Sequence record: PP430345
Direction: 5' to 3' (one strand)
Source: Escherichia phage vB_EcoM-LTH01
DNA length: 64,000 nucleotides
Shown: one piece after another, positions 8,823 to 51,996 of the stretch
Layout of the letters: every line of letters begins with the position of its first letter
Numbering within the stretch: the stretch's first letter is position 1
Notes under the pieces: generated by a model
Seen by the model: the letters and a program-made list of their open reading frames with translations, nothing else
The model's database searches: none
What the model was told of the DNA's origin: nothing
Made by a program: the position numbers and the translations under genes

Positions 8823-9374
8823 ATGCGAGTCACTGATAAACATGTGTTCTTTTATTCTTATCGCGATGTTTTTAGTAATCATTACCAGGAGATCTCTCCA
8901 TTCTCAAACTTCGACCAGAAGATGAAGGGGGTTTATTTCCACACTGGTGAGCATTACATGATGTATGAAAAGGCTATGCTTTTCGGTGACAAAGCTTCAG
9001 CGGAAAGGATCATTAAGGCCGTAACGCCGCAAGGTGCTAAAACGCTCGGTCGTAAGGTAAAGAATTTTGATCAGGCAGTTTGGGATGAAAATAAATTTAA
9101 CATTGTGACCCGTTTAGTGTATAGTCGTATGTGTGATAATGGTAATCTCCGTGAACTTGCGGTAGGTTACCGTAAAAAGGGTTTGAAGTTTGTAGAAGCC
9201 TCGCCGAGAGATCGTATATGGGGGATCGGTATGGACGAGAATCATCCTATGGTAGATGATGAAAGTTTCTGGTATGGAGAGAATCTTTTGGGGAAAGCCT
9301 GGGACGAAGCAACGGATATGATTATCGATGTTTCGGAAGCTATGAATATGATTGGTAAATGTGAGGCATACTAA
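8823..9374 (+). CDS. NADAR-family protein (YbiA/DUF1768-like N-glycosidase / ADP-ribose processing)
   Basis: VFFYSYRDVFSNHYQ...FSNF...GEHYMMYEKAMLF...IWGIG pattern typical of NADAR domain. Confidence 0.65.
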   Translation: MRVTDKHVFFYSYRDVFSNHYQEISPFSNFDQKMKGVYFHTGEHYMMYEKAMLFGDKASAERIIKAVTPQGAKTLGRKVKNFDQAVWDENKFNIVTRLVYSRMCDNGNLRELAVGYRKKGLKFVEASPRDRIWGIGMDENHPMVDDESFWYGENLLGKAWDEATDMIIDVSEAMNMIGKCEAY

Positions 9375-17924: not shown

Positions 17925-20183
17925 TTGGGTATTACTGTTCGTAAGCGTAATGGTTCTGTAGAGAAATTCGAAGCTGAGAAGATCAACCGTGTTGTAGTTT
18001 GGTCTTGTGAAGGGGTTAATGATGTAAGTCCTTCTGATATCCTGATGAAATCTCAGATTCAGATGTATGATGGTGTAGAAACCGACGCGATTCACGATAC
18101 CCTGATCAAGTCCGCAGCGGACCTAATTAGTGTAGAAAGTCCAAACTATCAGTATCCAGCAGCACGTCTGCTTCTGTTTAAACTGCGTAAGCAGGCTTAT
18201 GGTGGTTTTGAACCTCGTCCACTGTACGCTCACATTCTTATGACTGTAGCTCGCGGTAAATACGATGAACATCTGATTTCAGATTACACGAAAGAAGAGA
18301 TTGAATTTTTAGATACAGTTATCGATCATGACCGTGATTTTGATTACACTTACGCAGCTATGCGTCAGTACGAAGATAAATATCTGGTCAAGGATCGTGT
18401 AACAGGTGAAATCTTTGAATCTCCTCAGACAGCACTGATGCTGATCGCAATGTGCTTGATGAGTAAAGAAGATCCTAAGAAGCGTCTACAAAAAGTGATT
18501 GATCTGTACAACATGGTTTCTACCATGAAGGTTTCTCTGCCTACTCCGATTATGGGTGGTGTACGAACTCCGACTCGCCAATTCAGTTCTTGTGTTCTGA
18601 TTGAATCAGGTGATGATATTAACCAGATCTTTGCAGCAGTTGAAGCACAAGGTAAGTATGCAGCACAGCGAGCAGGCATTGGTTTGAACTTTGGCGCTAT
18701 TCGTGGACAGGACGCTCCTATTCGCGGTGGGGAAGTTAAACATGCAGGTACGGTCGGCATTGTTCGAATGTATCAAGAATCTTTAGGTTGGGCATCTCAA
18801 GGTGGTCTGCGTAAAGCTTCAGCTAACTACTTTTATCCGATTTGGCACTGGGACTTTGAAAACCTGATCGTAATGAAGAACAACCGTGGTACTGAAAGCA
18901 CCCGTGCACGACATGTTGATTATGGTGTGCAGATCAATAAGTTCTTCTATACTCGCTTACAGAAAGGTGGCAAGATCAGTTTCTTCCATCCAAACGTAGC
19001 AAACGGTGATCTGTATAAATACTTCTTCTCGGATCAAGAAGCATTTGCAGAACTGTATGAGAAATTGGAGGCAGATCCTTCCATTCCTCGCAAAGAGCTT
19101 GAAGCGACTGATGCTTTCACTCGTTTAGCTCAAGAACGTAGCCAGACAGGTCGTATTTATATTCAGAACGTTGACCATTGCAATAGCAACAGTCCGTTCC
19201 TTCCTGATGTGGCTCCGATTAAGCAGTCTAACCTGTGTATGGAAATTGCATTACCTACGGCTCCGATCAATAACATTAAGGACCCGAAAGATTCTGGTGA
19301 AGTTGCACTGTGTACTTTATCAGCAATCAACCTCGGGAAGATTGAGAAGCTTGAAGATTTAGAAGAACCTGTTATGATCACGGTACGTGCTCTTGATAAC
19401 CTACTTGATTATCAGAACTATCCTGTTCTTGCAGCAGAGAAAACGTTACTGCGTCGTACTTTGGGTATTGGCTGGACTAACTTGGCGTATTACTTAGCTA
19501 AACGTGGACTTAAATATAGTTCGCCGGAAGCTGCCAATGAAGTTCATAAACTTGCGGAAGCATTCCAGTTCTACCTGCTGAAAGCTTCTGTTCAGTTGGC
19601 GAAAGAGCGTGGTGCTTGTGAGTGGTACGATCAAACATCTTATTCTCGTGGCATCTTACCTATCGATCGCTACAAGAAAGAAGTTGATCAGTTACATACC
19701 GCAGAATTGCAACAAGATTGGGAAAGTTTGCGTCTGGATATCGCATTGCACGGATTACGTAACTCAACGTTGTCCACAATGATGCCTTGTGAAACATCAA
19801 GCCAGATTACTAACTCTACCAACGGCATTGAACCTCCTCGTGGTCCAGTGACGTTTAAGAAGTCACCTGCGGGTATGCTTCCGACGCTGGTTCCTGGTGT
19901 TGGTGAGGAAGGTGTGGTGTACGAGTACAAATGGGATATGAATGGACCGACAGCTTATCTTAACCTGATGGCTATCATCCAGAAGTTTATTGACCAGTCG
20001 ATCTCGACCAATACTTTCTACAAACCTTGGGATTATCCAGGTGGCAAACTGCCGATTAAGATTGTACTGCGTGATCTGATGTATGCTTACAAGATTGGCC
20101 TGAAGACCGTTTACTATCAAGAAACTCGTGATGGTGAAGATGAAGAAGATGATGGCTGCGAATCAGGGGCTTGTAAATTGTGA
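17925..20183 (+). CDS. nrdA: ribonucleoside-diphosphate reductase alpha subunit (class Ia)
   Basis: TTG start after AAGGAG; ATP-cone VRKRNGSVEKFEAEKI; conserved catalytic core and C-terminal CxxxxC. Confidence 0.95.
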   Translation: MGITVRKRNGSVEKFEAEKINRVVVWSCEGVNDVSPSDILMKSQIQMYDGVETDAIHDTLIKSAADLISVESPNYQYPAARLLLFKLRKQAYGGFEPRPLYAHILMTVARGKYDEHLISDYTKEEIEFLDTVIDHDRDFDYTYAAMRQYEDKYLVKDRVTGEIFESPQTALMLIAMCLMSKEDPKKRLQKVIDLYNMVSTMKVSLPTPIMGGVRTPTRQFSSCVLIESGDDINQIFAAVEAQGKYAAQRAGIGLNFGAIRGQDAPIRGGEVKHAGTVGIVRMYQESLGWASQGGLRKASANYFYPIWHWDFENLIVMKNNRGTESTRARHVDYGVQINKFFYTRLQKGGKISFFHPNVANGDLYKYFFSDQEAFAELYEKLEADPSIPRKELEATDAFTRLAQERSQTGRIYIQNVDHCNSNSPFLPDVAPIKQSNLCMEIALPTAPINNIKDPKDSGEVALCTLSAINLGKIEKLEDLEEPVMITVRALDNLLDYQNYPVLAAEKTLLRRTLGIGWTNLAYYLAKRGLKYSSPEAANEVHKLAEAFQFYLLKASVQLAKERGACEWYDQTSYSRGILPIDRYKKEVDQLHTAELQQDWESLRLDIALHGLRNSTLSTMMPCETSSQITNSTNGIEPPRGPVTFKKSPAGMLPTLVPGVGEEGVVYEYKWDMNGPTAYLNLMAIIQKFIDQSISTNTFYKPWDYPGGKLPIKIVLRDLMYAYKIGLKTVYYQETRDGEDEEDDGCESGACKL

Positions 20184-20498: not shown

Positions 20499-20840
20499 AT
20501 GAAGATTTGGCTTGATGATTTGAGAGATCCGAAAGATTACGGGCATGATGATGCCACCTGGTTTAAAAATTCTGACCAGTTTATCGAGTTCCTTGAGGAC
20601 CCTAATAAAATGTATCGTCGGGTAACAGAATGGCATTTCGACAATGACCTCGGTGAAGATTCAAAAGAAGGTTACCGCTGCTTAGAAATGTTAGAAGAAA
20701 AGCTTGTGTTTGGCAAACCGATCCTGTATCCTGCTGTTCTGTTTGTTCACACTTCAAATCCGAGTGCCGCACAAAAGTTTATGGCAGCAAAGGAAGTCTT
20801 TAAGCGATATGGGATTGAAATTTTAAGAAATAACTATTGA
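20499..20840 (+). CDS. hypothetical protein
   Basis: first gene after terminator-promoter module; SD AGGAGGAAAAG. Confidence 0.55.
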   Translation: MKIWLDDLRDPKDYGHDDATWFKNSDQFIEFLEDPNKMYRRVTEWHFDNDLGEDSKEGYRCLEMLEEKLVFGKPILYPAVLFVHTSNPSAAQKFMAAKEVFKRYGIEILRNNY

Positions 20841-20895: not shown

Positions 20896-21993
20896 GTGAG
20901 TTACACAACTTTTAACAAAAACCAGTTTGATTTTATGGAACAACCGATGTTCTTTGGCGAGTCTGTTAACGTTTCTCGTTATGACAAGCAAAAACACAAC
21001 AAATTTGAAAAGCTGACAGAAAAGCAGTTGGCATTCTTCTGGCGACCGGAAGAAATCGATGTGACCCGTGACCGAATTGACTTTATGGGATTACCTGATC
21101 ATGAAAAACATATTTTCATTAGTAACCTTAAGTATCAAACATTGCTTGATTCAGTTCAAGGGCGTGGCCCGAATGCAGTATTACTTCCAATTGTTTCTGA
21201 CCCAGCTTTGGAAACTTGGATTGAGACTTGGGGTTTCAGTGAAACAATCCACAGCCGTTCATATACACACATTATTCGAAATGTATTTAGTGATCCTTCT
21301 GCAATTCTTGATGAGATCATGAAAACTCCAGAAATTCTGGAACGTGCAGATGCAGTTACGAAGCTGTATGACGATTTATTCCAGTTGAACAGTCGTTACG
21401 CTTTGAACTTGCCAGTCGATCGTTATGCACATGCACGAGCACTGTATCTGTGTATGCACAGTATTAATGCTTTGGAAGCAATCCGCTTCTATGTGAGTTT
21501 TGCATGTTCGTTTGCATTTGGTGAGCGTAGTATCATGACTGGCAACACCAACATTATCGAACTGATCGCTCGTGATGAAGCATTGCATTTGTCGGGTACT
21601 CAGTATATTCTGAACGAAATGCAGAGTGGTCGTGAAGGTGACCTTATTGCACGAGTCGCAGAAGATTGTAAAGATGAAGCCCGTGAGTTGTTCTTACAGG
21701 CACGACAGCAAGAACGTGATTGGGCAGAATACCTGTTCAAAGATGGTTCGATGGTTGGACTGAATAAAGAGATCCTGTGGCAATACGTAGATTATATGGC
21801 TGACCAACGTATGCGAGCAGTTGGTTTAGATAGTTTCATCGGTAAGCCACTGAAGAACCCGATCCCTTGGATCAATAGCCACCTGAATACTAAAAACGTC
21901 CAGGTGACTCCACAGGAACTAGAAAATGGTCAATATCTGTCTGGTCAGGTTGACTCTTCAGTAAGTGCATCTGACTTCGATTTCGAACTTTAA
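20896..21993 (+). CDS. nrdB: ribonucleoside-diphosphate reductase beta subunit
   Basis: GTG start; di-iron ligand helices (EALHL... ERSIMTG), own promoter upstream. Confidence 0.95.
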
Positions 21994-29449: not shown

Positions 29450-29455
29450 ATTTAA

Positions 29456-29509
29456 AGGTCACCTTTGGGTGGCCTTTTTTATTGACTTGAATTCATGGAT
29501 GTGTATAAT
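29456..29509 (+). promoter_or_regulatory. fused terminator-promoter module
   Basis: AGGTCACCTTTGGGTGGCCT + T6 running into TTGACT - 16 nt - TATAAT. Confidence 0.65.
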
Positions 29510-30066: not shown

Positions 30067-31317
30067 ATGAAAGTTTACTTGGTAGGTGGCGCAGTTCGTG
30101 ATGAACTGATGAGTGTTGAAAGTAAGGATCGGGACTATGTAGTCGTCGGCGCGACCCATGAAGAAATGATTGAAAAGGGATTTACTAAGGTTGGTGCAGC
30201 TTTCCCTGTGTACCTTGAACCAAACACAAAAGAAGAGTACGCTCTTGCTCGAACGGAAAGATCAACAGGTCCTGGTTATCACGACTTCGAGGTTGTGTTC
30301 TCTCCCGACGTTACAATTGAACAAGACCTGATGCGAAGAGATTTGACCATTAATGCTATTGCCAAGGATCTTTCTACGGGTGAAATTATTGACCCTTGCG
30401 GTGGTGTACTCGATATTGAACTTCGTCGGTTACGTTGTGTATCCACTAAAGCATTTATCGAAGACCCTTTACGTGTATACCGATTAGCCAGATTACATGC
30501 CAGATACGGCGGCGAGTTTACAATTGATCCTGAGACTTGGGGAATGTGCAAGGATGTTGATTTAAGTGCATTGCCAAAAGAGCGTAAATTTGCAGAGATT
30601 AAGAAATGCTTTAGTGATCAGTCAGAAATGAATAAACCTTCGGTAATGATCCGTATGTTGACTCAACTGGGAGAATTTCCTGAGCTTGTGGATTTATACG
30701 ATGTTGTTCAACCCAAGGAGCACCACCCTGAAGGTGATGCATTTGTTCACACTTTACTTTGCATGGATTATGCCCAAGCGACTCGTGCAAGTGAAGCTGT
30801 GAAGTGGGCAGTTCTGTGTCACGACTTAGGGAAATGCATTTATTGGTTAACAGGTAAATTGCACGGGCATGAAGAACATGGTATCAAGTTGACTGAACAA
30901 GTTTGCGATCGCTTTGGTGTTCCTAACAATTGGAAGAAGTTAGCTTTAGCTGTAACTGAGCACCATACACGACTTCACCGTATCAAAGAGATGAAGCCAA
31001 AGAAAGTTTACGACTTGTTGGTAGCCTTACGTGGTGAAAAGGACCAGGCATTCCTTTCTGAGTTTATTGACGCTTGCATCTGTGATGCTCGTGGTCGTGG
31101 CCCTGAAAAAATGTTTGACAACTACACCCAGCCTTTGGTATTATTCTCAGCACTGGCGGGGATTGTTCAAAACAGCGTTGCAATCTCAAAAGAAAGTAAA
31201 GAGATTTCTGAAAGATTTGCTGGACGTCCAGAAGAGATCAAGAATAGAATCCGAAATGTAAAAGTAAGGTACGTTACACAATACATCGATAAGATGAAGG
31301 AGAGTGAAAATGGTTGA
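30067..31317 (+). CDS. cca: CCA-adding tRNA nucleotidyltransferase with HD domain
   Basis: MKVYLVGGAVRDELM head motif; HD motif LCHDLGK; ~416 aa like bacterial Cca; track start 29977 is an upstream extension. Confidence 0.85.
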   Translation: MKVYLVGGAVRDELMSVESKDRDYVVVGATHEEMIEKGFTKVGAAFPVYLEPNTKEEYALARTERSTGPGYHDFEVVFSPDVTIEQDLMRRDLTINAIAKDLSTGEIIDPCGGVLDIELRRLRCVSTKAFIEDPLRVYRLARLHARYGGEFTIDPETWGMCKDVDLSALPKERKFAEIKKCFSDQSEMNKPSVMIRMLTQLGEFPELVDLYDVVQPKEHHPEGDAFVHTLLCMDYAQATRASEAVKWAVLCHDLGKCIYWLTGKLHGHEEHGIKLTEQVCDRFGVPNNWKKLALAVTEHHTRLHRIKEMKPKKVYDLLVALRGEKDQAFLSEFIDACICDARGRGPEKMFDNYTQPLVLFSALAGIVQNSVAISKESKEISERFAGRPEEIKNRIRNVKVRYVTQYIDKMKESENG

Positions 31318-31633
31318 AGGTTATTTGATCGGTTGTCTTATTAGTTGCCCACTTTGGTTCTTACTGATCAAATTACGGCAGAAGGGTTTTAACATTCCGT
31401 TCCCCAAGGATAGTGAAGACCTGTATATCCTAGAACCCCTGAACAATGAAAATGTAAATTTACGTATGGTCATGGTTGGTTGGCTATGTGCAACATTCTT
31501 CTGGTATCTTGTTTACCCAATTATTATCTGTGTTGCAATTGGGTCGTACTTGGTGTTCGGTATAAAAAGTTTATGTGGCCTTACTATAGGGAATGATAAA
31601 TTACTAACTAAGATCTTTGGGGTTAAAAAATGA
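31310..31633 (+). CDS. small membrane protein (paralog 1 of tandem pair)
   Basis: WFLLIKLRQKGFNIPFP motif and two TM segments. Confidence 0.5.
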   Translation: MVEGYLIGCLISCPLWFLLIKLRQKGFNIPFPKDSEDLYILEPLNNENVNLRMVMVGWLCATFFWYLVYPIIICVAIGSYLVFGIKSLCGLTIGNDKLLTKIFGVKK

Positions 31634-31950
31634 CAAGTTTATTAACGTATATTTTATGTTGCATTATAAGTTCTGCCGCTTGGTTCTTGTTAATCAAGCT
31701 TCGCCAGGGTGGGTTTCGTATCCCTTTGCCAGAAAACAGTAACTTACTCGACCCTTTAAATCACGGAAATGTTAATTATAAACTCCTGATGCTAGGTTGG
31801 TTAATAATGACTGTATTCTGGTTTGTAGGGTGGCCTTTCTTGATTTTGTTTTATGCTCTTGCGTGGATTGTTTATTCAACTATGGTTGTTTATAATCTAA
31901 CGATTGGTAATGAAAAGTTTGCAAAACGAATTTTTGGAGGTAAGAATTGA
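31630..31950 (+). CDS. small membrane protein (paralog 2 of tandem pair)
   Basis: WFLLIKLRQGGFRIPLP motif shared with upstream gene. Confidence 0.5.
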   Translation: MTSLLTYILCCIISSAAWFLLIKLRQGGFRIPLPENSNLLDPLNHGNVNYKLLMLGWLIMTVFWFVGWPFLILFYALAWIVYSTMVVYNLTIGNEKFAKRIFGGKN

Positions 31951-32402
31951 AAACTCGGATGTACGTATTGGTAAACAGCTACATGATGGGAATCCAAGCA
32001 GGTATCCAAGCAGCACATGCAGCAGCAAACCTTGTAGGTCATTATGGCTTTGCCTATGCCGATCGATATGATGACAGATACAACCTTGTAGATCAGTGGC
32101 AAAGCAAAGACCAAACAATGATCTTGTTGAACGGAGGCTATCAATCGAAGATGCTTAATTTTGCAGAAGGATTTTTAGCTCCAAACATAGAGAAGATTCC
32201 TTACGCATTTTTCTGCGAGGAGAATGATTCTTTGAATGGTGCACTTACGGCTATTGCTTTTATTCTTCCTCAACATATGTGGGATGTTAAGTTAGTTGAT
32301 GGTCGTTGTCCTCTTTTCTCTGATACAATCGATCATAAGTATACGCAAAAAGAAATGGACTTTATCGAAGCATTTAAATCTTTCAAGCTTAAGCAGGGGT
32401 AA
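31947..32402 (+). CDS. hypothetical protein; tentative PTH2-like peptidyl-tRNA hydrolase fold
   Basis: MYVLVNSYMMGIQAGIQAAHAA loosely resembles the PTH2 VVRxDLxMxxGKxAAQxxHAA motif. Confidence 0.45.
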   Translation: MKTRMYVLVNSYMMGIQAGIQAAHAAANLVGHYGFAYADRYDDRYNLVDQWQSKDQTMILLNGGYQSKMLNFAEGFLAPNIEKIPYAFFCEENDSLNGALTAIAFILPQHMWDVKLVDGRCPLFSDTIDHKYTQKEMDFIEAFKSFKLKQG

Positions 32403-33198: not shown

Positions 33199-33288
33199 AT
33201 AAAAAAGATTGCACAAGCTGCGTAAACTTTATAAAGATTAAACAGGCCAACTGGGTTGGCTTGTGTGACTTACATGATTGGAGGATAA

Positions 33289-34416
33289 ATGGAAAATTCA
33301 GTTGTGAGTGCTGGAAAGGTAAAAAGTATCGTAGAGAAGATGGAAAAGCATCCAGACGTAGCAAAGGTCTTGATGTTGAGTCTGGCAGGATCTCATGCGT
33401 ATGGTACGAATAACGAAGGCAGTGATATTGATATTCGTGGGGTTTTTGTTGCAACTCCAAATGTGGTTCGTACCCCATTCAAAGAGGTTACTGAATTAAA
33501 CATCCCTGGTGAAGAGGATGCCAAGATCTACGAGTTGGGAACTTTCCTTCAACTGTTTTCGAAGATGAACCCAAATATCATTGAACTGGGTTTTACTGAT
33601 CCGAAAGCCACATTGTACGAGCACGAAGCTTGGAAAGAGATGAAAGAACATTTCTACTCCTTACTGTCTCGTGAAGTTGCATTTCGCTTCAGTGGTTATG
33701 CAATGTCTCAGTTAAAGCGGATCAAGGGTCACAACAAACACATTAATAATCCGCAACCAAAAGAGCCACCAACTCAATTTGACTATTTCCGTCTGGTGCA
33801 GAGCTATCTCGGAGAAGGTGAGTTGAAGTATGAAGACTTTGTTCGTAAATTTAAAAACATGGAAGGCTTCTGTACTCTGGTTCCTTACGGTGGTAACATT
33901 TACGGTGTTGTAGAAGATCGTAGTGAAGATGTTCAACCAATGTTTAATAAAGATGGTTCTATCCGTAAGCTGGATTATGAAGAAATCCCAGAGGAGGTTA
34001 AAAGAGGTAAGACACTGATGATTGTTAAGTATTGTGCAGACGATCATAAATGGGCCAAGGATAAACATCACAACTACTGGGAGTGGGTTAAGAATCGTAA
34101 CGAGAAGCGTCATGAACTGGAAGAGAAGTTCGGTTACGACACTAAACATGCTATGCATTTGGTCCGGCTTCTTCGGATGGGTGAAGAAATCCTCACAGAA
34201 GGTAAAGTTTTAGTGAATCGACCAGACGCTGAAGAACTCCTCGCAATCCGAAATGGTGAATACCGCTATGAAGAAATTGTTGACTGGGCTGAAGAAAAAG
34301 ATAAAATGATCACAGATGTTCTTTATAAGCAATCGAGCTTACCGAAGAAAACAGATCTGAAGATTGTTGAAAAACTTATTCTGGAGGCACAAGACAAGGT
34401 ATGGAAGGAAACCTAA
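33289..34416 (+). CDS. Pol-beta-superfamily nucleotidyltransferase
   Basis: LSLAGSHAYGTNNEGSDIDIRGVF = GS-x(9)-DxD NTase motif; ~300-aa helical C-terminal region. Confidence 0.6.
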   Translation: MENSVVSAGKVKSIVEKMEKHPDVAKVLMLSLAGSHAYGTNNEGSDIDIRGVFVATPNVVRTPFKEVTELNIPGEEDAKIYELGTFLQLFSKMNPNIIELGFTDPKATLYEHEAWKEMKEHFYSLLSREVAFRFSGYAMSQLKRIKGHNKHINNPQPKEPPTQFDYFRLVQSYLGEGELKYEDFVRKFKNMEGFCTLVPYGGNIYGVVEDRSEDVQPMFNKDGSIRKLDYEEIPEEVKRGKTLMIVKYCADDHKWAKDKHHNYWEWVKNRNEKRHELEEKFGYDTKHAMHLVRLLRMGEEILTEGKVLVNRPDAEELLAIRNGEYRYEEIVDWAEEKDKMITDVLYKQSSLPKKTDLKIVEKLILEAQDKVWKET

Positions 34417-35986: not shown

Positions 35987-36187
35987 AATTTCACATTAAG
36001 GTATACCCTATGGGTCAGATCTGGTCCATAGGTATTTTCTATGTATTAAAATCGATTTAAGTTATTTAAATACTTTTTTGAAGTCTTGTTGTAAAAATTA
36101 ACAACATAGTGTTCATGACCGATCTTCGCTGTTGTATTTTTTCATAATATGATAAAATGTGTTCAGCTTAGTGGAAGGATGGTCATT

Positions 36188-42044: not shown

Positions 42045-43244
42045 ATGTTAGAAATGTTGAACTTAGGTGCTGTGGCCTCTCTACCGCCGATTGATGGTGA
42101 AATTTCACCTGAATTTATCCAAGCGCAGCAATCGATAGTTATGTATCTTCACAGGCCAACTGGCAATCTTTACGGGTATGGTAATGCACCTGTATACCGA
42201 TTCGGAGACGGTATCCCAACAGAAGTGCCGAGCTTTAAACTTATCTATTCAAACTGTAAATATTTCTGGTTGGGTCAGGCTAGTACACTTGTTGCAACAA
42301 ACGATGATAAATTCTATTATGCTGGGGTCAGAAACGCATTTCCACCACTGGGGACAGGTGGTGGTAACGTTGCTTACTTTACTGAAGTTACAGTACATTT
42401 TAACAATATTGGTGTGACACCTGATGATATAAAAACTCTGGCGCTCGGTAGCGGATCTTGTAGGCTTCTGACAAAAGATGGTCGTGTTTTCTGCTGTGGT
42501 CTTAACTCTAATGGTGAGTGTGGGAACGGTACAAGAAATATGATTGCAAACTTTGTCCAGATCACCAATATGGGACCTATATCTCAATTGGCTACAAGGG
42601 CTTTCGGTACTCATTTCTTAACTGAAGATGGCAGGGAATTCTTTGCAGGGTACGATGCTTACGGGGAAAGTGGCCTAGGTGCTCTTAACAGCCACTTACA
42701 AACTCCAACATTGGTTACTTCGGGTGTTAAAAACATAATTGTTGCTACGGTATGTACTTGGAGAATAATGCAAAATGGAGACGTGTATTGGAGCGGTTTG
42801 AATACTCAAGGTTCTGCGGGAACAGGTTCATTTAACAACGCAGGTACGGTCCTAAGACCTATAAAAAACGATGCCTTGAGTGGAAACTTACCGGAGGGTG
42901 ATTTATTATATCCATCAGGCATCCAAACAGGTGATGCAACGGGTGCTCCGATCATTTGTTTCGGGAGAAACACTATCAAAAACGGTGGTGAAAACGGATC
43001 AGGTCAAGTGGGTGATGGTGTAAGTTATACATCGGTATATAACTATGTGGACATGTACAAACCTGCAACCTTCGGAGATAAAAAGGTTATTGGGGTGGCT
43101 AAAGATTATGTACGATCATTTATCTTAACTGAAGATTATCAATTGTTTGCCGCAGGTGGTAGAACAGCAAGTGGATGGACACTCCCTGATGGAGGGACCA
43201 GTGTTACACCCATGCGCCTCATGGCTAGTATGCCTTGGTACTAA
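42045..43244 (+). CDS. RCC1-like Gly-rich repeat protein, paralog 1 of 4
   Basis: starts MLEMLNLG; repeated G-x-N-x-x-G-x-x-G-x-G units such as CCGLNSNGECGNGT and WSGLNTQGSAGTGS. Confidence 0.7.
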   Translation: MLEMLNLGAVASLPPIDGEISPEFIQAQQSIVMYLHRPTGNLYGYGNAPVYRFGDGIPTEVPSFKLIYSNCKYFWLGQASTLVATNDDKFYYAGVRNAFPPLGTGGGNVAYFTEVTVHFNNIGVTPDDIKTLALGSGSCRLLTKDGRVFCCGLNSNGECGNGTRNMIANFVQITNMGPISQLATRAFGTHFLTEDGREFFAGYDAYGESGLGALNSHLQTPTLVTSGVKNIIVATVCTWRIMQNGDVYWSGLNTQGSAGTGSFNNAGTVLRPIKNDALSGNLPEGDLLYPSGIQTGDATGAPIICFGRNTIKNGGENGSGQVGDGVSYTSVYNYVDMYKPATFGDKKVIGVAKDYVRSFILTEDYQLFAAGGRTASGWTLPDGGTSVTPMRLMASMPWY

Positions 43245-43257
43245 TAAGGAGAATAGA

Positions 43258-44391
43258 ATGTTAGAGATGTTAAATTTATCTGGCGCGGCAGGGAAGGTCC
43301 CATTTAAGTTGAAAAAGTTTGATATTACAGCAAGCGAAAGTATTCACTTGCTTAGTGAAGCTGGCAATCTGTACTCAATATCACCTACAAATGTAAACTT
43401 ATCGGGAACGGGTGTTACCACAACGCAGTGGACGTTAGTCTCTTCGGGTGTAGATGACTTCTGGGCTGGGCAAGCTTCGCTCTTGTTCAAAACAAAAGGG
43501 GGATCGTGGTTTATTACAGGGTATAACTTCTTCGTACCTAGAGTAGAGAATACGCCCGTTGACGTAACGGCTAAGGTAATGGCAATCAATAAGCCGATAA
43601 GAAAAATAGAAATGGGTGCTAATGCGATCGCTTTCCTTTATACAGATAATACTCTGGCAGTTGCGGGATCAGGCCCCCATTTAGGCTTAGGTTCCAATAC
43701 TTCAGTCCCGAATTTAACTTATGTTGAACCACCAAATACTTCGTTGGGTATCAAAGATGTTGCGATATTGGATACTTCAGTTACTACCTGGATTATAAGC
43801 GGGGGTGATGTATACGGATGTGGAAACGGGGCTTACTCTAAGTTTTCTTCTTCCAACGGGACAGGCCAAAGGACCTCTTTTGTTAGGATACCAAACCCAA
43901 TAAACTCAGCACCACTTGCATTAAAGACTGGATATGAGTGCGTGTATATTTCAGGCTCACGCACAGACGGGGATGAATTGATACTCGGCTTAGGTAGCAA
44001 CGCATATGGGTCATTAGGTGCAGCATCTACTGTTGCAACTGTAACTGACATATCTGTAGTCACAAGCAGTGTTTATTCACCCGCTTACGGGTTTTACCCT
44101 CTCGCCCAAGGTCTTGTGAGGAGAATAAATAACAATATCGGTATTACGGGGAGGACTGCGGGGACAGGCTGGGGATTGGGAACTCAGACGTATTACGGTA
44201 TTACTAGAATAACCACTACAGCAAGTCCGTTATGGGGTCAAATATTTCAAAGGGGTGAGTATACAAACACTTACGTTCTGGCAGAAGATGGTATTTTGTA
44301 TGGGTCGGGTGGGGCTTCAACAGGTAAATTACCTGGTTACACAACAGATCAGTCAACCTATGTGCCACTGGACCTTACCGGACTTGAATAA
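43258..44391 (+). CDS. RCC1-like Gly-rich repeat protein, paralog 2 of 4
   Basis: AAGGAGAATAGA SD then MLEMLNLSG; track start 43147 overlaps paralog 1. Confidence 0.7.
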   Translation: MLEMLNLSGAAGKVPFKLKKFDITASESIHLLSEAGNLYSISPTNVNLSGTGVTTTQWTLVSSGVDDFWAGQASLLFKTKGGSWFITGYNFFVPRVENTPVDVTAKVMAINKPIRKIEMGANAIAFLYTDNTLAVAGSGPHLGLGSNTSVPNLTYVEPPNTSLGIKDVAILDTSVTTWIISGGDVYGCGNGAYSKFSSSNGTGQRTSFVRIPNPINSAPLALKTGYECVYISGSRTDGDELILGLGSNAYGSLGAASTVATVTDISVVTSSVYSPAYGFYPLAQGLVRRINNNIGITGRTAGTGWGLGTQTYYGITRITTTASPLWGQIFQRGEYTNTYVLAEDGILYGSGGASTGKLPGYTTDQSTYVPLDLTGLE

Positions 44392-44400
44392 GGAAAAATT

Positions 44401-45540
44401 ATGTTAGAGATGATGAACTTAGGTTCTGTCGAATTGCCAGAAGTGGAAGGTAACGTTAAGAAATTCGCCGCCGGAGGTACGGGGATTGTTGTACTTATGA
44501 AATCCGGCAACGCCTACGGTATCGGAGATCAATACTTCAGCGGTACAGGGGGGAATGTTACAACATGGAGGCTTCTGGCAAGAAACGTTGCAGATATATG
44601 GGCTGCAACTGGCTCTGTGCTTATGAGGACAACCGCAGATAGATGGTTGTTTATGGGGTTTAACCAATATTTTAATACTGGTTTTGGAACTACGATAACC
44701 ACCCCCAGAGATATAACTACAGATATGCCTATACCCGAAGGATTTGAGATCAAGCAGTTGGTACTCGGGTATCGTAACTTGGCTGTTGTCTTTACCAATG
44801 GGCGGTATGCAATGTGCGGGACTAATAACGCAGGAGGTCTGGGGACAGGGGACACTTTTGCAGTAAGAACCTTAACCTTAAGAACTGACTTCACAAACGT
44901 TGAAAAAATAGATCTTGATTGGGCAACCTACGACACATCTTATCTTCTTACCCAAGCTGGTGAAGTTTATGTATCAGGTGTTTCAAATAATGGACAAAAC
45001 GGGACAACTTCAAACACTACAACTTGGTTTAGGCAAAGCCCAATTAGTGGTGGTACGGTAGTTGACATAATCGCGACAACGCTTGGGTTTTTTAGGGTTG
45101 TACTTTTAAATGGTAATTACTACGTCTACGCACAAGGGCGAAGTTCGTCAGGGAGTCTTGGGGTAAATAACTCAGGTAACATAAACGTTCTTTCACCCTC
45201 ATTGGTATTTTCTAATGTACCTTCAAGACCTCCTTTGTACATTGGTCACCTTAGCGCCCGTATTCTCCACCCCGAAGAAAGGGTATACTATACAGGGGCG
45301 GCTACGGGTAGTTTACAAGGAGCAGGTGCACAATTTCAGTCGTCGTATTCAGTATTTACACGGCTTGCAGAGACTGTACCGTATGGTGGAGAATATTCAT
45401 CCCTAAAAGGTGGCTATGTTGCACACTACTATGTAGATAAAGGAAACCTATATGGTGTCGGTAATAGCAGTGCAGGATTGCTCCCAGGTTACATAGGTAC
45501 ACAACTCTTCGAATTTACACCGTTGGAATTGCCGGAGTAA
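44401..45540 (+). CDS. RCC1-like Gly-rich repeat protein, paralog 3 of 4
   Basis: MLEMMNLG start; CGTNNAGGLGTGDT; C-terminal LLPGY...LELPE. Confidence 0.7.
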   Translation: MLEMMNLGSVELPEVEGNVKKFAAGGTGIVVLMKSGNAYGIGDQYFSGTGGNVTTWRLLARNVADIWAATGSVLMRTTADRWLFMGFNQYFNTGFGTTITTPRDITTDMPIPEGFEIKQLVLGYRNLAVVFTNGRYAMCGTNNAGGLGTGDTFAVRTLTLRTDFTNVEKIDLDWATYDTSYLLTQAGEVYVSGVSNNGQNGTTSNTTTWFRQSPISGGTVVDIIATTLGFFRVVLLNGNYYVYAQGRSSSGSLGVNNSGNINVLSPSLVFSNVPSRPPLYIGHLSARILHPEERVYYTGAATGSLQGAGAQFQSSYSVFTRLAETVPYGGEYSSLKGGYVAHYYVDKGNLYGVGNSSAGLLPGYIGTQLFEFTPLELPE

Positions 45541-45562
45541 AAAACTTCAAAAGGGGAATTAA

Positions 45563-46714
45563 ATGTTAGAAATGATGAACTTAGGCACTGTTAAACTTCC
45601 TGCGGGAGGAGGCAGGGTCAAGAAGTTTGCAGCGGGGCAACAAGGCATCGTTGTACTTATGGAGTCTGGGAAACTCTATGGTCGCGGAAGTCAGTATTTT
45701 AGTGGTACAGGGTCTACTGTAAACACTTGGAAACTGCTAGGAACAGATATCGCAGACGTATGGACGGGTCCCGTATCAACTCTTGCAAGGACAACAGACG
45801 ACAGATGGTTGTTTATGGGATTGAACCAATATTTTAACACTGGTTTTGGGACAACATGGTCCGCGCTGACGGATGTTACAGTGGATATGCCTATCCCTGT
45901 TGGCCTTACGGTTAAGCAGGTAGTGATGGGATACATAAACGTTGCAGTAGTCTTTGCAAATGGACAATATGCCATGTGTGGGACAAATGTCTCCGGTGGA
46001 TTGGGTGTTGGTAACACATCACCTGTGAGAACCTTAACATTAAGGACCGATTTTACGAACGTGGAGAAGATAGACCTCGATTGGGGGACATATGATACCT
46101 CCTATCTTCTTACCCAAGCTGGTGATGTTTATGTGGCCGGACAATCTTCTTATGGTCAAAACGGAACACAGTCTAGCTCCACAACTTGGTTCAGGCAAAG
46201 TTCAGTTAGCGGCGGGACAGTGGTAGATATAGTTGCAACAACCTTAGGGTTCTTCAGGATCGTTCTTTCATCAGGGAGTTACCGAATATATGCGCAAGGG
46301 AGGGACATAAACAATAGTCTTGGAACTAACACCACAAGCAACACACCTCGACTGGCCCCTGTATTAGTTCTTTCGGGAATAGCAAGTGCAGTAAGACCAA
46401 GGGTATATATCAGTCACTATGCTGCCCGAGTTATAGATAGCGATGGAGTAGTATACTTTACAGGACAAGGGACGGGAGATCTACAGGGTGTTGGGACCAC
46501 ACCTCAACCAACGTATCGTGTTTTTTCACAGCTTGACCCAATAGTTCCGTCCGTAGGTGATTATTTTTCCACAAGATCTCAGTACCTGACTAACTATTAT
46601 TTGGAAGATGGTGTTCTGTATGGTGTTGGTCAGGGTGCTCAAGCAACACAGTTACTACCTGGTTATGGAACGACACAGGTTCTGACTTTCTCTGTTCTGG
46701 AATTACCGGAATAA
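45563..46714 (+). CDS. RCC1-like Gly-rich repeat protein, paralog 4 of 4
   Basis: MLEMMNLG start; CGTNVSGGLGVGNT; C-terminal LLPGY...LELPE; followed by terminator. Confidence 0.7.
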   Translation: MLEMMNLGTVKLPAGGGRVKKFAAGQQGIVVLMESGKLYGRGSQYFSGTGSTVNTWKLLGTDIADVWTGPVSTLARTTDDRWLFMGLNQYFNTGFGTTWSALTDVTVDMPIPVGLTVKQVVMGYINVAVVFANGQYAMCGTNVSGGLGVGNTSPVRTLTLRTDFTNVEKIDLDWGTYDTSYLLTQAGDVYVAGQSSYGQNGTQSSSTTWFRQSSVSGGTVVDIVATTLGFFRIVLSSGSYRIYAQGRDINNSLGTNTTSNTPRLAPVLVLSGIASAVRPRVYISHYAARVIDSDGVVYFTGQGTGDLQGVGTTPQPTYRVFSQLDPIVPSVGDYFSTRSQYLTNYYLEDGVLYGVGQGAQATQLLPGYGTTQVLTFSVLELPE

Positions 46715-47887: not shown

Positions 47888-48023
47888 AGACAACCCGAAC
47901 GCCCTTTGGGAGAATTGTGACTACCTTTTATGGCCTAACTGGTATCATTACTTGACTTATGGCATTATCTTAGTGTTAATCGCATCCGTCGCCGTACTGT
48001 CGGCTATGGAGCAACTACGATGA
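47874..48023 (+). CDS. small membrane protein (49 aa)
   Basis: internal ATG of track ORF 47766; TM segment LTYGIILVLIASVAVL. Confidence 0.3.
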   Translation: MTGNKDNPNALWENCDYLLWPNWYHYLTYGIILVLIASVAVLSAMEQLR

Positions 48024-48206
48024 CTGCTGGGGTAGTGATCGCGCTACCACTACTGATACTGGCGTTCTCCATGATTATGGTGGACATTATGGAGAAAGGA
48101 CGATGAATCACACTGACACAAAGAAGGGTCAGTGGGGCACTTGGTGAACACTTAACATCAGGGTTTAAATCATAATTACCCTATCGACAATAAAGAGGAA
48201 ATTACT

Positions 48207-48416
48207 ATGAAAACTGTACGCATTGAAGACGTTGATTTCGACGAAACCGAGGTTAGCATCAAGAAGTCTGGGATCGGCAACCTCGTCTCTGTAGACTTCA
48301 ATCCCGATGAATATGAAGAAGGAAATACATTAATGTATTATACACCAGAGGCAGCACGTAAGCTTGCGGCAGCACTTATCACCGCAGCAGACGAAGCAGA
48401 GCAGGGTGAGAAGTGA
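48207..48416 (+). CDS. hypothetical protein
   Basis: AAAGAGGAAA SD. Confidence 0.5.
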   Translation: MKTVRIEDVDFDETEVSIKKSGIGNLVSVDFNPDEYEEGNTLMYYTPEAARKLAAALITAADEAEQGEK

Positions 48417-48419
48417 GAT

Positions 48420-48539
48420 ATGAACATTTACGAAATGGTAACAGTTGAGCACGTCCTGTTTGACCTTAATAACGGATACATTAACGTTTGTTGCGGTGAT
48501 ACATTAACTTCAATTGTTAAATTGGAAATTGAAGATTAG
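48420..48539 (+). CDS. small protein (39 aa)
   Basis: ORF packed exactly between neighbours. Confidence 0.3.
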   Translation: MNIYEMVTVEHVLFDLNNGYINVCCGDTLTSIVKLEIED

Positions 48540-48541
48540 AT

Positions 48542-48736
48542 ATGGTATACCGTACATTTGAAGAATGGAAAAAGAAAGGTCGTGTCGTCGTAAAAGGAGA
48601 GGAAGCTGCGGGATTCCTTAAGGACGGCACGGCATTGTTCTCTAAAGAGCAGACAAAGAAAACACCAACTAAATTATACACTCACAACCAAGGGTACGAC
48701 TCATGGTACATGGGTGATGAGTATGAATACTATTGA
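48542..48736 (+). CDS. hypothetical protein
   Basis: 64-aa ORF. Confidence 0.45.
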   Translation: MVYRTFEEWKKKGRVVVKGEEAAGFLKDGTALFSKEQTKKTPTKLYTHNQGYDSWYMGDEYEYY

Positions 48737-48747
48737 TAAGAGGTAAT

Positions 48748-48984
48748 ATGGCACACTATAACTTTCAAGAAATTAAAAGAGGTGCATACTTCGGTCATGT
48801 GGACGGCCCTAATGACGAAGTGTTCAGGAAATCGGGGACGTTTACGTTCTACGATGTTAAGAGCAAAGACTGTCTGGACATTCGAGAGACGACTTGGAGA
48901 CATAACTTCAGTAGTGATGAACGTCCTTTCGTGTTGGCACAGGTAGAAATTAAGGTCGATATCACTTGGAGGCCGGAATGGTAA
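48748..48984 (+). CDS. hypothetical protein
   Basis: ATG after AAGAGG; track start 48733. Confidence 0.45.
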   Translation: MAHYNFQEIKRGAYFGHVDGPNDEVFRKSGTFTFYDVKSKDCLDIRETTWRHNFSSDERPFVLAQVEIKVDITWRPEW

Positions 48985-49364
48985 ATAAAATCGCACATCG
49001 TTGGAATGGTACACGTAAATCTTTGGCAGAAGAGGCCGAAAGGCGTAAAGAACAAGAGGAGAAGATTGTTTCTGGCTCTGTACGTAGGATCTATATAGAA
49101 CCGAAAGATAAGAAGGTAATTTATGACGGAACAGAGGCGCAATTTGTCTACGAAATAGCTAAGAAGGATGCAGATGCCCTTGGGTTTACTCAGAGCTACC
49201 TTGAGTATGCCTACGATAATGGAATTGAATCTATCATCCTTCAAGAAGATAAAGATAAATCTCAATACAAGTCAGTAAAAGCACAGAGCTACAGAATTGT
49301 TAAGCTTGTCAATCTATTTGACATTGACAATCCAACGTATGCCCTCAGACGACTGGCTGTATGA
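48978..49364 (+). CDS. hypothetical protein
   Basis: ATG after GGAGG; last + strand gene, followed by terminator. Confidence 0.5.
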   Translation: MVNKIAHRWNGTRKSLAEEAERRKEQEEKIVSGSVRRIYIEPKDKKVIYDGTEAQFVYEIAKKDADALGFTQSYLEYAYDNGIESIILQEDKDKSQYKSVKAQSYRIVKLVNLFDIDNPTYALRRLAV

Positions 49365-49377
49365 TCCTGAACTACAG

Positions 49378-49404
49378 AGAGCACCCCAAAAGTGGGTGCT
49401 TTTT
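49378..49404 (+). terminator. intrinsic terminator closing the + strand block
   Basis: GAGCACCCCAAAAGTGGGTGCT + TTTTT. Confidence 0.75.
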
Positions 49405-49429
49405 GCATCTGGATTGCAACCAAACTCAT

Positions 49430-50400
49430 CTGCTCATCCCAAAATGTTGTACACCTCTCCAAAATGTTGTGCCCACCAAACTATATAGTCCTTCCAAACT
49501 GTTGTACTCCAGCTACAATAATGCCCAAATATCGTACAACGATTCCCACAAATATCGATTCATCCCAAAATTAGGTAGTTTGCCTAAAGAGTAACCACTA
49601 CTTGGCCTACTGAGGCGCATCTTTTGCCACAGAGTTACCTCCCTTCCCTATACATCCATCCCTCATAGTTTAGAATTTCCAGTATATGTCTACTCTGAGT
49701 GGACCTCCATCATGAATTTTAAACGACAACTTTTTAGTTTTTATACCCTCCCGCCAAAATTTTGAGTCACCTCTTATGGGGTATGCCGCCTGTGAATATC
49801 CCACAAAATATCTCACAGGTCATAAAATATACCTCCCCGCCAAATTTTATGATGGATACTCCACGGGGGTGGGTCCATTATTTATCCTGCCCAAATATAT
49901 CTAAAGGGGGTAGCCTAAAGAGGCTCGCCAGTAGTGTCCCTTGACCTTGTTCCTCGTCAGCAAGAAAGAAGAGGATGTTTGCATCTTTTTTGTTGAGTGC
50001 GTTGGCACTGTTGCCAGGCACGGCGACCGTGGGGGAGGGGGAGGGGGTCGGATGTTTTCAAAATATCCAGGAAGTCAAGCATTATTTCTATTTATTTTCA
50101 ATCCACAATACATCTTTGATTCGACTTGTCAAGAAAAATGTTGTGCTCTTCCAACAATAAAGTTAAAGATTTCTATTGACTTCTGAATCTGATTTAGAAT
50201 ACTGATTTCAATCTGCATTTAACATAATACAACTTATACGCACTACAAGCGACTTGCAAGCGCCCTTCTTCCAGTCCAACAAGTGAGGCGACCTCAAGCC
50301 CCGCCAGGTCTGGCCCCTTCCAACTTGTGAGAAGAATAATCCCAACTTGTTACTATCCAACTGTGAATTATTCCAACTGTACAGAAGCGACTCCATCAGG
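49430..50400. repeat. iteron-like short direct repeats (CCAA-N-TGT family)
   Basis: CCAAAATGTTGT x2, CCAAACTGTTGT, CCAACAAGTG, CCAACTTGTG, CCAACTTGTT, CCAACTGTG, CCAACTGTAC in an ORF-free region. Confidence 0.5.
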
Positions 50401-50534
50401 GCCATCAATAGCCTGAGCGCCCCGCCATACTCTGGCAATAAAAGCAAGAAAAAATTTATTTTGGGAGAGAAGAGAGAAGAGAGTTTTACCTAGCAATATT
50501 CTATTGTCTGTTCATTCTGTGGGCAAGTAACAGC

Positions 50535-50600
50535 CTTTTACGGCCTCTTTGTGTACTGTGCATCCTCTTTGTGTACCCTACAGCCTCTTTGTGTGGTCAC
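50535..50600. repeat. triple direct repeat CCTCTTTGTGT
   Basis: three copies at ~22-bp spacing. Confidence 0.55.
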
Positions 50601-50714
50601 ACTAACGGCCTTCCTATTGACTAGCTATTCACTTTATATGAATAACAAAGCATTAAATAATTCAATATTATCTTCGATAATGTATTGACAAAAGATAAAA
50701 GATTACTACAAGTA

Positions 50715-50828
50715 GACACTATAAAACGAGGAAACGAAGAGAACAGATAGCAACAATCTGTTTCGTTGATATCGGTTATCACCGATGACCGCATAGCGGT
50801 AGGAGGGGTATACTCGTTTTATAGTGTC
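50715..50828. repeat. nested inverted repeat (long hairpin/cruciform)
   Basis: GACACTATAAAACGAG ... CTCGTTTTATAGTGTC 16-bp perfect inverted repeat enclosing ACAGAT/ATCTGT and ATCGGT/ACCGAT palindromes. Confidence 0.55.
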
Positions 50829-51084
50829 GCTCCCTACGGTCGCGCCACCTCCATACTCTGGCAATGGTATCTCTTTAAAACTGCTTTCTTTGTGGGCAAG
50901 ATAGTTCTTTCTTTGTGTGTTTTGTTGTGGTAAGCTATCAGATTAGTTTTGATTTTTGGGAGAGAGATTCCAAAGGGTGATTGGATTGATGGGTAAAGTA
51001 AGTTAGAGGGGTTAGATAGGATAAGATGATCCAAATAGGGAAGAGATTAATAGAGTTGGGAGAGTCACGCCGATGGATATGATA

Positions 51085-51105
51085 AGGGCCGCTATTGCGG
51101 CCCCT
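51085..51105 (-). terminator. intrinsic terminator closing the minus-strand block
   Basis: minus strand GGGCCGCAATAGCGGCCC followed by TTATCAT. Confidence 0.5.
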
Positions 51106-51119
51106 GATTATGTTACCTC

Positions 51120-51539
51120 TTAAAGTGCTTCATAGATTTCATAGTAGCGATTTGCCAGATCATTACGAAAGCGGAATTTTTCATCACGTTTGATAATCAG
51201 GTCTTTAAAGCCAAAATCTTTCAGTGCTTCATTAACTTTACTGCGGCTTACTTTCATGTTGTCCTGTGCATCACCGATAAATTTGTTGCTGTGCTGCATT
51301 GCTTTAATTTCTTCTTCCAGAACCAGGGCAACTACACGAACCGGATCAAGGCGATAATCGTTAACATCCATACGGCATTGTAAACGGCTTTTAACGTCTG
51401 CCACTGGATAAACTGCAACCTCTTCCCCATCAACATTGACGATAACCAGTTTACCATCAATTTCAAAACCTTTGGCGGCGCTACCGTGACAAAAAGCGTT
51501 ATCGAAAGAGTAAGCCGGATTAGTTGATTTGATGTTCAT
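51120..51539 (-). CDS. hypothetical protein (possible KilA-N/Bro-N-like N-terminal domain)
   Basis: 139-aa ORF with promoter upstream; FEIDGKLVIVNVDGEEVAVYPVADV loosely Bro-N-like. Confidence 0.55.
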   Translation of the reverse strand: MNIKSTNPAYSFDNAFCHGSAAKGFEIDGKLVIVNVDGEEVAVYPVADVKSRLQCRMDVNDYRLDPVRVVALVLEEEIKAMQHSNKFIGDAQDNMKVSRSKVNEALKDFGFKDLIIKRDEKFRFRNDLANRYYEIYEAL

Positions 51540-51671
51540 GTCGTTGTCCTTTGTTTTGTTGTTTGCTGCTAGAGATATAACTATACTGCAAAATTGACTT
51601 TCTTGTCAATAGAGGGAATTGTAAATTAATGGAATATTTACAAAGGGGGCATATAACCCCCGTTTTCGATA

Positions 51672-51941
51672 TTACTTAGTATACCCTTTAAACCACTCCT
51701 GCCAGGCCTGGTTATGTTCTGCCTCATCACGACGAATCTGTTTTTGCTCCGCAAGTCGGATCTCATCTTCGAGGTAGCCCAGGATATCGGCCTTTTTGAC
51801 TTTCTGCAACTTCCAATCATCAGCTTTGTGGCTGAATACCTTATAAGCCTTCTCACATACTTCTTTTTTGCTCCCTTTCTGAACTTCAAGGATACGGTAA
51901 GCCATATGCTGAACTACTTTAAGCTGGTCGATGCGATTCAT
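51672..51941 (-). CDS. hypothetical protein
   Basis: 89-aa ORF with balanced composition; preferred over overlapping 51638..51889. Confidence 0.5.
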   Translation of the reverse strand: MNRIDQLKVVQHMAYRILEVQKGSKKEVCEKAYKVFSHKADDWKLQKVKKADILGYLEDEIRLAEQKQIRRDEAEHNQAWQEWFKGYTK

Positions 51942-51996
51942 GATGTTAATCCTGTTAGGTCAGTTAGTGGGCCTTTCGGCCCGTTTGATTATTCTA

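Follow-up and report, generated by a model that had tools for sequence, protein, structure and literature searches.

On what does the nucleotidyltransferase (NTase) of Escherichia phage vB_EcoM-LTH01 act, and what would the phage gain from it? The question is raised by a gene within a 64,000-nt stretch of sequence record PP430345 (the whole stretch is called the window below), for which an original prediction, made from the sequence alone, had proposed a Pol-beta-superfamily NTase of unknown specificity and had named RNA 3'-end repair, nucleotide second-messenger synthesis and a modifying enzyme as possible roles. By its sequence, the gene is genuine and intact and belongs to the RlaP family of Pol-beta-fold NTases (PF10127), and we consider it probable that the encoded protein is a template-independent RNA 3'-terminal NTase that mends tRNAs damaged during infection. 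Exactly one long open reading frame (ORF) was found where the original prediction had placed it (Table 1), and the following co-directional ORF, which starts at 34401, overlaps its end. The GC content of the gene (0.41) was taken as equal to that of the whole window (0.40). The phage belongs to the Vequintavirinae; at DNA level, the gene is 98% identical to its counterpart in Escherichia phage A7_1 and 95% identical to that in UPEC06, two rV5-like myoviruses of ~140-150 kb in which it is labelled 'hypothetical protein' or 'nucleotidyltransferase' (the latter in UPEC06). The 90-nt gap 5' of the gene holds a perfect 6-bp hairpin (GCCAAC-TGG-GTTGGC, 33246..33260), which lies 20 nt ahead of the Shine-Dalgarno sequence and has no T-run on the + strand.

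Profile searches place the protein in the RlaP family at scores far above those that chance would give. The Pfam RlaP model ('RNA repair pathway DNA polymerase beta family') scored 68.6 bits (E 8.8e-19; gathering cut-off 23), with residues 15-145 aligned to profile positions 9-140 of 249; NTP_transf_2 reached 21.2 bits at a cut-off of 21, and a weaker generic Polbeta match was obtained too. Over its full length, the protein matches PHROG 388 ('nucleotidyltransferase', E 3.9e-79), other phage members of which are full-length homologues with 43-66% identity (PVP-SE1 gp166 and proteins of Cronobacter phage CR9, Pectobacterium phage phiTE and Vibrio phage D69). A word-indexed search retrieved 5117 homologues at E<=1e-3, every top match carrying PF10127, and 6758 clusters were retrieved at the same threshold by an exhaustive search of 50%-identity representatives. 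Three short relatives of 281-297 aa (P0219, P0175 and P0198), ~40% identical to the phage NTase, match the RlaP profile over positions 20-248 of 249. Their alignment with the phage protein covers its residues ~25-165 and ~250-375, so that ~165-250 appears as an insertion. Since these relatives cover the entire profile together with both halves of the phage NTase, RlaP membership holds for both halves. The superfamily assignment of the original prediction was correct, and the type of C-terminal domain, for which it had considered cGAS/DncV-like NTases (CD-NTases) as well as RlaP/MNT proteins, turned out to be that of RlaP. The family itself is already known: there are a Pfam model and a PHROG, several relatives are annotated as NTases, and members were recently characterised.

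The active site is intact. The N-terminal signature GS...GSDIDI, spotted beforehand, reads ...LSLAG34S35HAYGTNNEG44S45D46ID48IRGVF..., i.e. G34-S35 followed by G44-S45-D46-I-D48-I. Two alignments (A1 and A2) show no variation at G34, S35, D46, D48 and D77, and among 121 representatives with <=50% mutual identity, to which all conservation values given here refer, these residues are conserved to 97%, 97%, 96%, 98% and 92% (plus 7% E at position 77), respectively, while E99 of an NPNxxE motif reaches 97%. D77 is the putative third metal ligand, as judged by conservation and position, not by coordinates or geometry, and the acidic triad D46/D48/D77, on which the NTase call hinges, is conserved in these divergent relatives. 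Conservation extends beyond the core to G136, Y137, A138, Q141, H148 and P161 of the linker (each at least 92%) and is highest in the C-terminal domain at W266, R270, N271, R274, E278, D284, K286 (100%), H290 and R293, residues that would line the NTP/RNA cleft.

Many homologues of 680-760 aa carry an insertion of ~320-350 aa exactly within the invariant motif GYD/TKHAMH of the C-terminal domain (P0121, P0123, P0124, P0126, P0130, P0166, P0168, P0173, P0192, P0231; locus L012 2162-4213), at a point that corresponds to window position 34140/34141 between D284 and T285. The insertion starts with Cys (C[YH]..DTEFLT) and ends in ...VTRxNGKxxxxGN followed by Thr, Cys or Ser, which are hallmarks of inteins; a LAGLIDADG_3 match within it is weak and sub-threshold. 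Such a recurrent intein marks the motif as functionally critical, and GYD/TKHAMH is probably an active-site element of the RlaP family. Together with the clade-specific insert and the gene module without a recognised ligase, both described below, this recurrence is a point of modest interest.

An AlphaFold2 model built on 69 sequences (mean predicted local distance difference test score 93.1, predicted template modelling score 0.80) displays an alpha/beta NTase core with strands 24-33, 48-55 and 79-82, helices in 113-162 including a long linker helix (130-153), and an all-helical domain (250-375) with a long final helix (357-374). The ~300-aa helical region that the original prediction had expected behind the core thus stands for residues 113-162 and 250-375, but in the model it is interrupted at ~163-249 by a beta-rich insert with strands 167-172, 195-201, 204-209 and 242-248. 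This insert is absent from short canonical RlaPs, facing gaps in P0219, P0175 and P0198; it has an alignment column occupancy of 0.43-0.87 and a net charge of -3, and may contribute to substrate choice. Because it separates the two domains by ~87 aa, the Pfam profile aligns only to the N-terminal half.

Does the fold point to a substrate other than RNA? The best solved-structure matches obtained with Foldseek were the kanamycin nucleotidyltransferase ANT(4'), MNT antitoxins and HalB of the Hailong system, all of which, like the phage protein, have a helical (HEPN-like) domain behind a minimal NTase fold; the likeness is confined to the fold (template modelling scores of 0.2-0.3, 4-18% identity). 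Sequence searches against PDB chains gave a marginal MNT match (E 0.73) for the single protein and nothing for the 69-sequence profile. A protein or small-molecule nucleotidylyltransferase of MNT/ANT/DrrA type, for instance one that neutralises a HEPN RNase or some other defence protein of the host by AMPylation, would agree with the weak MntA sequence matches. However, apart from the fold-level character of the likeness, the NCBIfam MntA model scored 18.9 bits (cut-off 60), no gene for a HEPN toxin adjoins that of the NTase, the C-terminal helical domain has no conserved Rx4-6H HEPN-type RNase motif among the 121 representatives, and tested RlaPs left E. coli proteins unmodified (bioRxiv 10.64898/2025.12.29.696909). 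We regard this explanation as very unlikely, and the earlier option of an enzyme modifying proteins or small molecules found no support. The same is true for the option of a nucleotide second messenger: that the protein is a CD-NTase/cGAS-like or HalB-like enzyme whose product, a nucleotide signal or a free oligonucleotide, serves to manipulate or decoy host immune signalling, appears highly improbable, as there was no CD-NTase family match in Pfam or NCBIfam, Foldseek assigned a probability of 0.04-0.05 to the CdnD structures 7to3 and 7d48, the C-terminal domain is of the RlaP helical type, and the neighbourhood is tRNA-related with no effector- or receptor-like gene partner.

As family assignments, four candidates were rejected: MntA type VII antitoxin (375 aa, 18.9 versus 60 bits, no adjacent HEPN gene), the aminoglycoside/lincosamide NTases ANT(4') and LinB (on scores, with no close structural or sequence match), CD-NTase or cGAS-DncV-like enzymes (no Pfam or NCBIfam match, no effector-like neighbour) and CCA-adding/poly(A) polymerase, since the NTase ORF is without a PF01743 match. 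The class II CCA-adding/poly(A) polymerases (PF01743) likewise perform template-independent addition to RNA 3' ends with a Pol-beta fold, but they are a different family, and the true CCA enzyme of this phage lies 2 kb upstream of the NTase gene.

What reaction can be expected from an RlaP? Two Pseudomonas enzymes, PfRlaP of P. fluorescens and PaRlaP of P. aeruginosa, were described by Carruthers, Fatma and Huang in a preprint of December 2025 (bioRxiv 10.64898/2025.12.29.696909). Both label E. coli RNA, not DNA or protein, by attaching 1-2 nucleoside monophosphates (NMPs) to the RNA 3'-OH from any NTP and also from dATP; they are most active with Mn2+ or Co2+ and favour the break-side 3' end of a cleaved-tRNA mimic, i.e. 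that of the 5' half. According to the same preprint, RlaP partly restores aminoacylation of a tRNA from which one anticodon-loop nucleotide had gone missing before ligation, the crystal structure contains three strictly conserved aspartates, and RlaP was proposed as an antidote to nucleotide-excising ribotoxins such as RloC. The many viral members listed there include T4 NrdC.11, a PF10127 protein in cluster 5 of the sequence similarity network. Restoration of lost nucleotides by phage RlaPs has been predicted by comparative genomics (PMC7824862; PMC6514570), and in the literature on NrdC.11, PF10127 and phage tRNA-repair anti-defence we found no functional study of any phage RlaP. NrdC.11 is too divergent from the phage NTase to show in tblastn at E<=1e-5. 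T4 encodes a Pnkp/Rnl1 repair system of its own.

The phage protein shares with the Pseudomonas RlaPs the Pfam family and the GS/DxD/third-Asp site. Its predicted two-domain plan seems similar to that of PfRlaP, as judged by the published description of the crystal structure, which has an NTase domain and a C-terminal helical domain; the terminal helix of PfRlaP packs back on the NTase domain, and the phage model ends in the long helix already mentioned. The same activity is presumed for the phage enzyme. In contrast to the Pseudomonas proteins, the phage protein is longer owing to its insert, and its gene lies outside any rtcB-rtcA operon, the partners being genes for a CCA-adding enzyme and a hydrolase resembling peptidyl-tRNA hydrolase 2 (PTH2). 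In the mechanism that we favour, G34-S35 together with D46, D48 and D77 would hold the NTP and two metal ions for divalent-metal-dependent catalysis, and one or two NMPs would be added to the RNA 3' end. Acting alongside the co-directional CCA-adding/HD enzyme and PTH2-like hydrolase, the NTase would restore nucleotides lost from tRNAs that have been cut or trimmed by host ribotoxins. We infer the activity from the bacterial RlaPs; the tRNA substrate and a role in counter-defence are likewise presumed. Of the three roles considered at the outset, RNA 3'-end repair is thus the one supported, by the family biochemistry (bioRxiv 10.64898/2025.12.29.696909) as well as by the gene neighbourhood, and the specificity, formerly left unknown, can be narrowed to that of a putative RlaP-type RNA-end NTase, with the substrate in the phage clade presumed from relatives and neighbours.

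The same chemistry might serve as a host-shutoff weapon, with MenT-like tailing of host tRNA 3'-CCA ends that blocks charging. Within total E. coli RNA, RlaPs do extend intact molecules of tRNA size (bioRxiv 10.64898/2025.12.29.696909), and that toxins of MenT type tail acceptor ends is well established (cited in PMC13219725). But the phage's own tRNAs and translation would be poisoned as well, the linkage is to repair enzymes (CCA, RnlA, RtcB, Thg1) instead of antitoxins, and in Myxococcota the family occurs widely, its genes standing alone on the chromosome. We give this explanation hardly any credence; what it shares with nucleotidylylation of proteins or small molecules and with signal synthesis is that only a resemblance at the level of the fold speaks for it.

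Why should the substrate be tRNA? In the window, the NTase gene is part of a co-directional array in the order CCA-adding enzyme, two membrane proteins, PTH2-like hydrolase, NTase, two genes without assigned function and, as the last, a gene for an aminoacyl-tRNA-synthetase-like (aaRS-like) protein. The ORF of the CCA-adding enzyme as listed begins with TTG at 29977, its likely start being the ATG at 30067, and the NCBIfam model 'multifunctional CCA addition/repair protein' matches it with E 5e-114, under that model's own cut-off. The hydrolase looks like a divergent PTH2, a weak assignment: with a profile of its family (A3), the top two PDB matches were archaeal PTH2 structures, 2zv3 (E 0.0037) and 1xty (E 0.12). 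Weak, too, is the assignment of the last gene product as class II aaRS-like: NCBIfam serS (E 2e-4) stays far under its cut-off, likenesses to motifs 2 and 3 of class II enzymes can be read in the segments TPCFRDE and GTGLAEPR, the protein has no tRNA-binding or anticodon-binding domain, and no match was found in PDB sequence or profile searches. The array from CCA-adding enzyme to aaRS-like protein may be one transcription unit, its boundaries being suggestive only because the counts of promoter and terminator sites are not above shuffled expectation. No tRNA gene is present in the 64,000-nt window; UPEC06 has five elsewhere (Met, Tyr, Pro, Gly and Gln, upstream of the terminase gene; L003 28318-30060), and CCA is encoded in all five of them, so a phage CCA enzyme is not needed for their maturation, which fits a function in repair.

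The linkage is conserved in relatives, for which we sampled 80 viral and 80 bacterial loci with an NTase homologue. A CCA-adding gene lies 1-4 kb from the NTase gene on the same strand in 18 of the 80 viral loci, and in 12 of the 80 a PTH2-like gene is found as well, between or beside the two. In locus L058 the three genes adjoin directly and overlap one another, and CCA and NTase genes overlap by 10 nt in L019, while the gene order is reversed in L070 and the hydrolase precedes the CCA-adding enzyme in L043; every other flanking ORF of these four loci is unique to its locus. Rearranged order among unique flanks implies that the linkage is not mere inherited synteny. PVP-SE1 has the same trio of CCA-adding enzyme, hydrolase and NTase, and in Vibrio phage D69 the three are joined within 9 kb by Thg1 (tRNA-His guanylyltransferase) and RnlA (RNA ligase 1), of which vB_EcoM-LTH01 has no detected counterparts. 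In the bacterial loci, mostly from Myxococcota and Planctomycetota, the homologue (~30% identity) is usually stand-alone: RtcB lies within ~3 kb in 4 of 80, a Thg1-like gene in 1, and CCA-adding enzyme plus hydrolase in 1, and clustering of the 80 bacterial neighbourhoods gave no conserved partner, the top 'clusters' being antisense artefacts of high-GC DNA. Judged by sequence, every recognisable conserved partner is an enzyme acting on tRNA. That genes for a PTH2-like hydrolase and a CCA-adding/HD enzyme accompany the NTase gene in several phages of otherwise unrelated background points to tRNA repair.

Several observations weigh against a tRNA-repair function as proposed here. The activity is extrapolated to the phage clade from Pseudomonas enzymes, and the Pfam RlaP profile aligns directly to residues 15-145 only, so that homology of the C-terminal part is transitive. 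In 55 of the 80 viral loci, the homologue belongs to T4-like environmental phages and sits between uvsX and uvsY/uvsW with uvsX, gp32 and uvsW as neighbours, a replication-block context that is uninformative about RNA, and no tRNA gene was found within 10 kb of the NTase homologue in 43 loci. For RtcB, Rnl1 and Thg1, tblastn gave no match in the window and none in 121 kb of UPEC06, and Pfam and PHROG scans of large ORFs yielded only an ATP-dependent DNA ligase, Rnl2-type ligases being covered solely via Pfam on selected large ORFs. With no RNA ligase recognised, the step that seals the repaired anticodon loop is either absent or performed by host enzymes. The preprint on the Pseudomonas enzymes itself points to two difficulties: the 3'-OH product of RlaP is incompatible with RtcB, and the nucleotide choice of the enzyme is non-specific (bioRxiv 10.64898/2025.12.29.696909). 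The linkage to RNA ligases from which RlaP takes its name was not found in this phage but is present in some relatives, and the name reflects a frequent, not universal, association.

A stand-alone cREC_REC 'cyclic-phosphate processing receiver' protein of 113 aa is encoded between nrdA (17925..20183) and nrdB (20896..21993) at 20499..20840 (+; Pfam 67 bits versus 27; PHROG 1479). Its label in UPEC06, 'RNA ligase 1 and tail attachment protein', is apparently a domain transfer. The cREC domain is predicted to process 2',3'-cyclic phosphate RNA ends (PMC7824862), and the protein is a possible partner in RNA-end processing.

The lack of a recognised ligase brings up the possibility that the same chemistry takes place at the 3' acceptor end of tRNA, independently of a ligase, instead of at breaks in the anticodon loop. 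The PTH2-like hydrolase would then strip an (N-acyl)aminoacyl or peptidyl group, the CCA enzyme would rebuild CCA and its HD domain would clear 3'-phosphate or cyclic-phosphate ends; we consider this explanation unlikely, though not negligible. Both conserved partners work at the acceptor end, the phage has no recognised RNA ligase, the class II aaRS-like gene ends the same array, the phage tRNA genes (as seen in UPEC06) already encode CCA, and bacterial RlaPs label full-length tRNA-sized RNA, too (bioRxiv 10.64898/2025.12.29.696909). On the other hand, the argument is one of neighbourhood, in which the PTH2 and aaRS assignments are weak, relatives sometimes adjoin RnlA or RtcB, and E. coli hosts possess an RtcB, which could supply ligation. 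Furthermore, on a nicked tRNA mimic the published RlaPs chose the 3' end on the anticodon side in preference to the acceptor end (bioRxiv 10.64898/2025.12.29.696909). Taken further, the phage clade might possess an RlaP-type enzyme uncoupled from ligases, within a conserved three-gene module with the CCA/HD enzyme and PTH2-like hydrolase that repairs the acceptor end without ligation and re-adds nucleotides upstream of CCA after over-trimming or toxin damage, an idea to which we assign a low probability. If true, this would amount to a distinct tRNA-repair pathway and to counter-defence against acceptor-end toxins.

Table 1 Features of the RlaP-family gene, its product and the surrounding array in the window (strand and basis of each call as given).
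Feature	Position	Strand	Basis or remark
Terminator-like hairpin	29454-29477	+	consensus scan; candidate upstream boundary of array
Promoter-like site TTGACT-16-TATAAT, near-consensus	29482-29509	+	consensus scan
CCA-adding/repair enzyme, PolyA_pol head plus HD	30067..31317	+	Pfam PolyA_pol 69.8 bits, HD 35.1 bits; PHROG 2244
Two tandem paralogous small membrane proteins	31304..31633 and 31630..31950	+	both PHROG 17692; between CCA and PTH2-like genes
PTH2-like hydrolase	31947..32402	+	PHROG 3668 'hydrolase' E 1.7e-37; Pfam PTH2 E 0.0097, sub-threshold
Shine-Dalgarno sequence GGAGG	33280..33284	+	4 nt before NTase ATG, read from sequence
RlaP-family (PF10127 / PHROG 388) NTase gene	33289..34416	+	single long ORF, 375 aa plus stop, ATG start
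Minimal NTase core, residues 25-112	33361..33624	+	motif conservation and model strands
G34-S35	33388-33393	+	active-site motif
D46-x-D48	33424-33432	+	active-site carboxylates
D77, candidate third carboxylate	33517-33519	+	conservation and position
Helical linker, residues 113-162, motif GYAxSQLKRIKGHxKWxNNPQP	33625..33774	+	helix 130-153, conservation
Variable beta-rich insert, residues ~163-249 (~87 aa)	33775..34035	+	model strands, alignment gaps
C-terminal helical domain, residues 250-375	34036..34413	+	conserved
Most conserved block, G282-Y-D-T-K286-H-A-M-H290-L-V-R293	34132-34167	+	within C-terminal domain
Minimal class II aaRS-like protein, ~200 aa	35378..35986	+	PHROG 4806 'histidyl tRNA synthetase' E 1.5e-55
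Putative terminator, 11-bp stem plus T-run	36007..36032	+	intergenic gap; candidate downstream boundary of array

Other features of the phage DNA were recorded alongside. At 42045..46714 (+), four paralogous genes follow one another in tandem, and their products of 379-414 aa contain RCC1-like beta-propeller repeats; Pfam WD40_RLD remains under its cut-off, and RCC1 and RCC1_2 are at or above theirs in some of them. A NADAR-domain protein (8823..9374, +, 128 bits) is labelled 'swarming motility protein ybiA' in UPEC06; NADAR is an ADP-ribose-processing family discussed as phage counter-defence or as an RNA-repair accessory. The 'GTP pyrophosphokinase' of UPEC06 (118229-118792; L005 22230-22793, outside the window) consists only of an HD_4 SpoT-type hydrolase domain (187 aa, PHROG 990 phosphohydrolase) and by its domain content is a small alarmone-hydrolase-like protein, not a synthetase. 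GC skew flips sign near 50 kb (~48000-52000), being positive from 1 to 50 kb and mostly negative thereafter, and up to 47.6 kb the + strand carries every ORF of at least 150 aa.

Repair of infection-damaged tRNAs, probably at RNA 3' ends, is thus the function that we propose for the NTase of vB_EcoM-LTH01. The gene can be annotated as RlaP-family RNA 3'-terminal nucleotidyltransferase, which replaces 'hypothetical' or the generic 'nucleotidyltransferase'. RlaPs would enable cells and phages to rescue tRNAs after attack by ribotoxins that not only cut but also remove nucleotides. An rV5-like coliphage that encodes an RlaP without a recognised RNA ligase, next to a CCA-adding enzyme and a PTH2-like hydrolase, offers a tractable E. 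coli system for the role of RlaP in vivo and for a possible ligase-independent route of acceptor-end repair.

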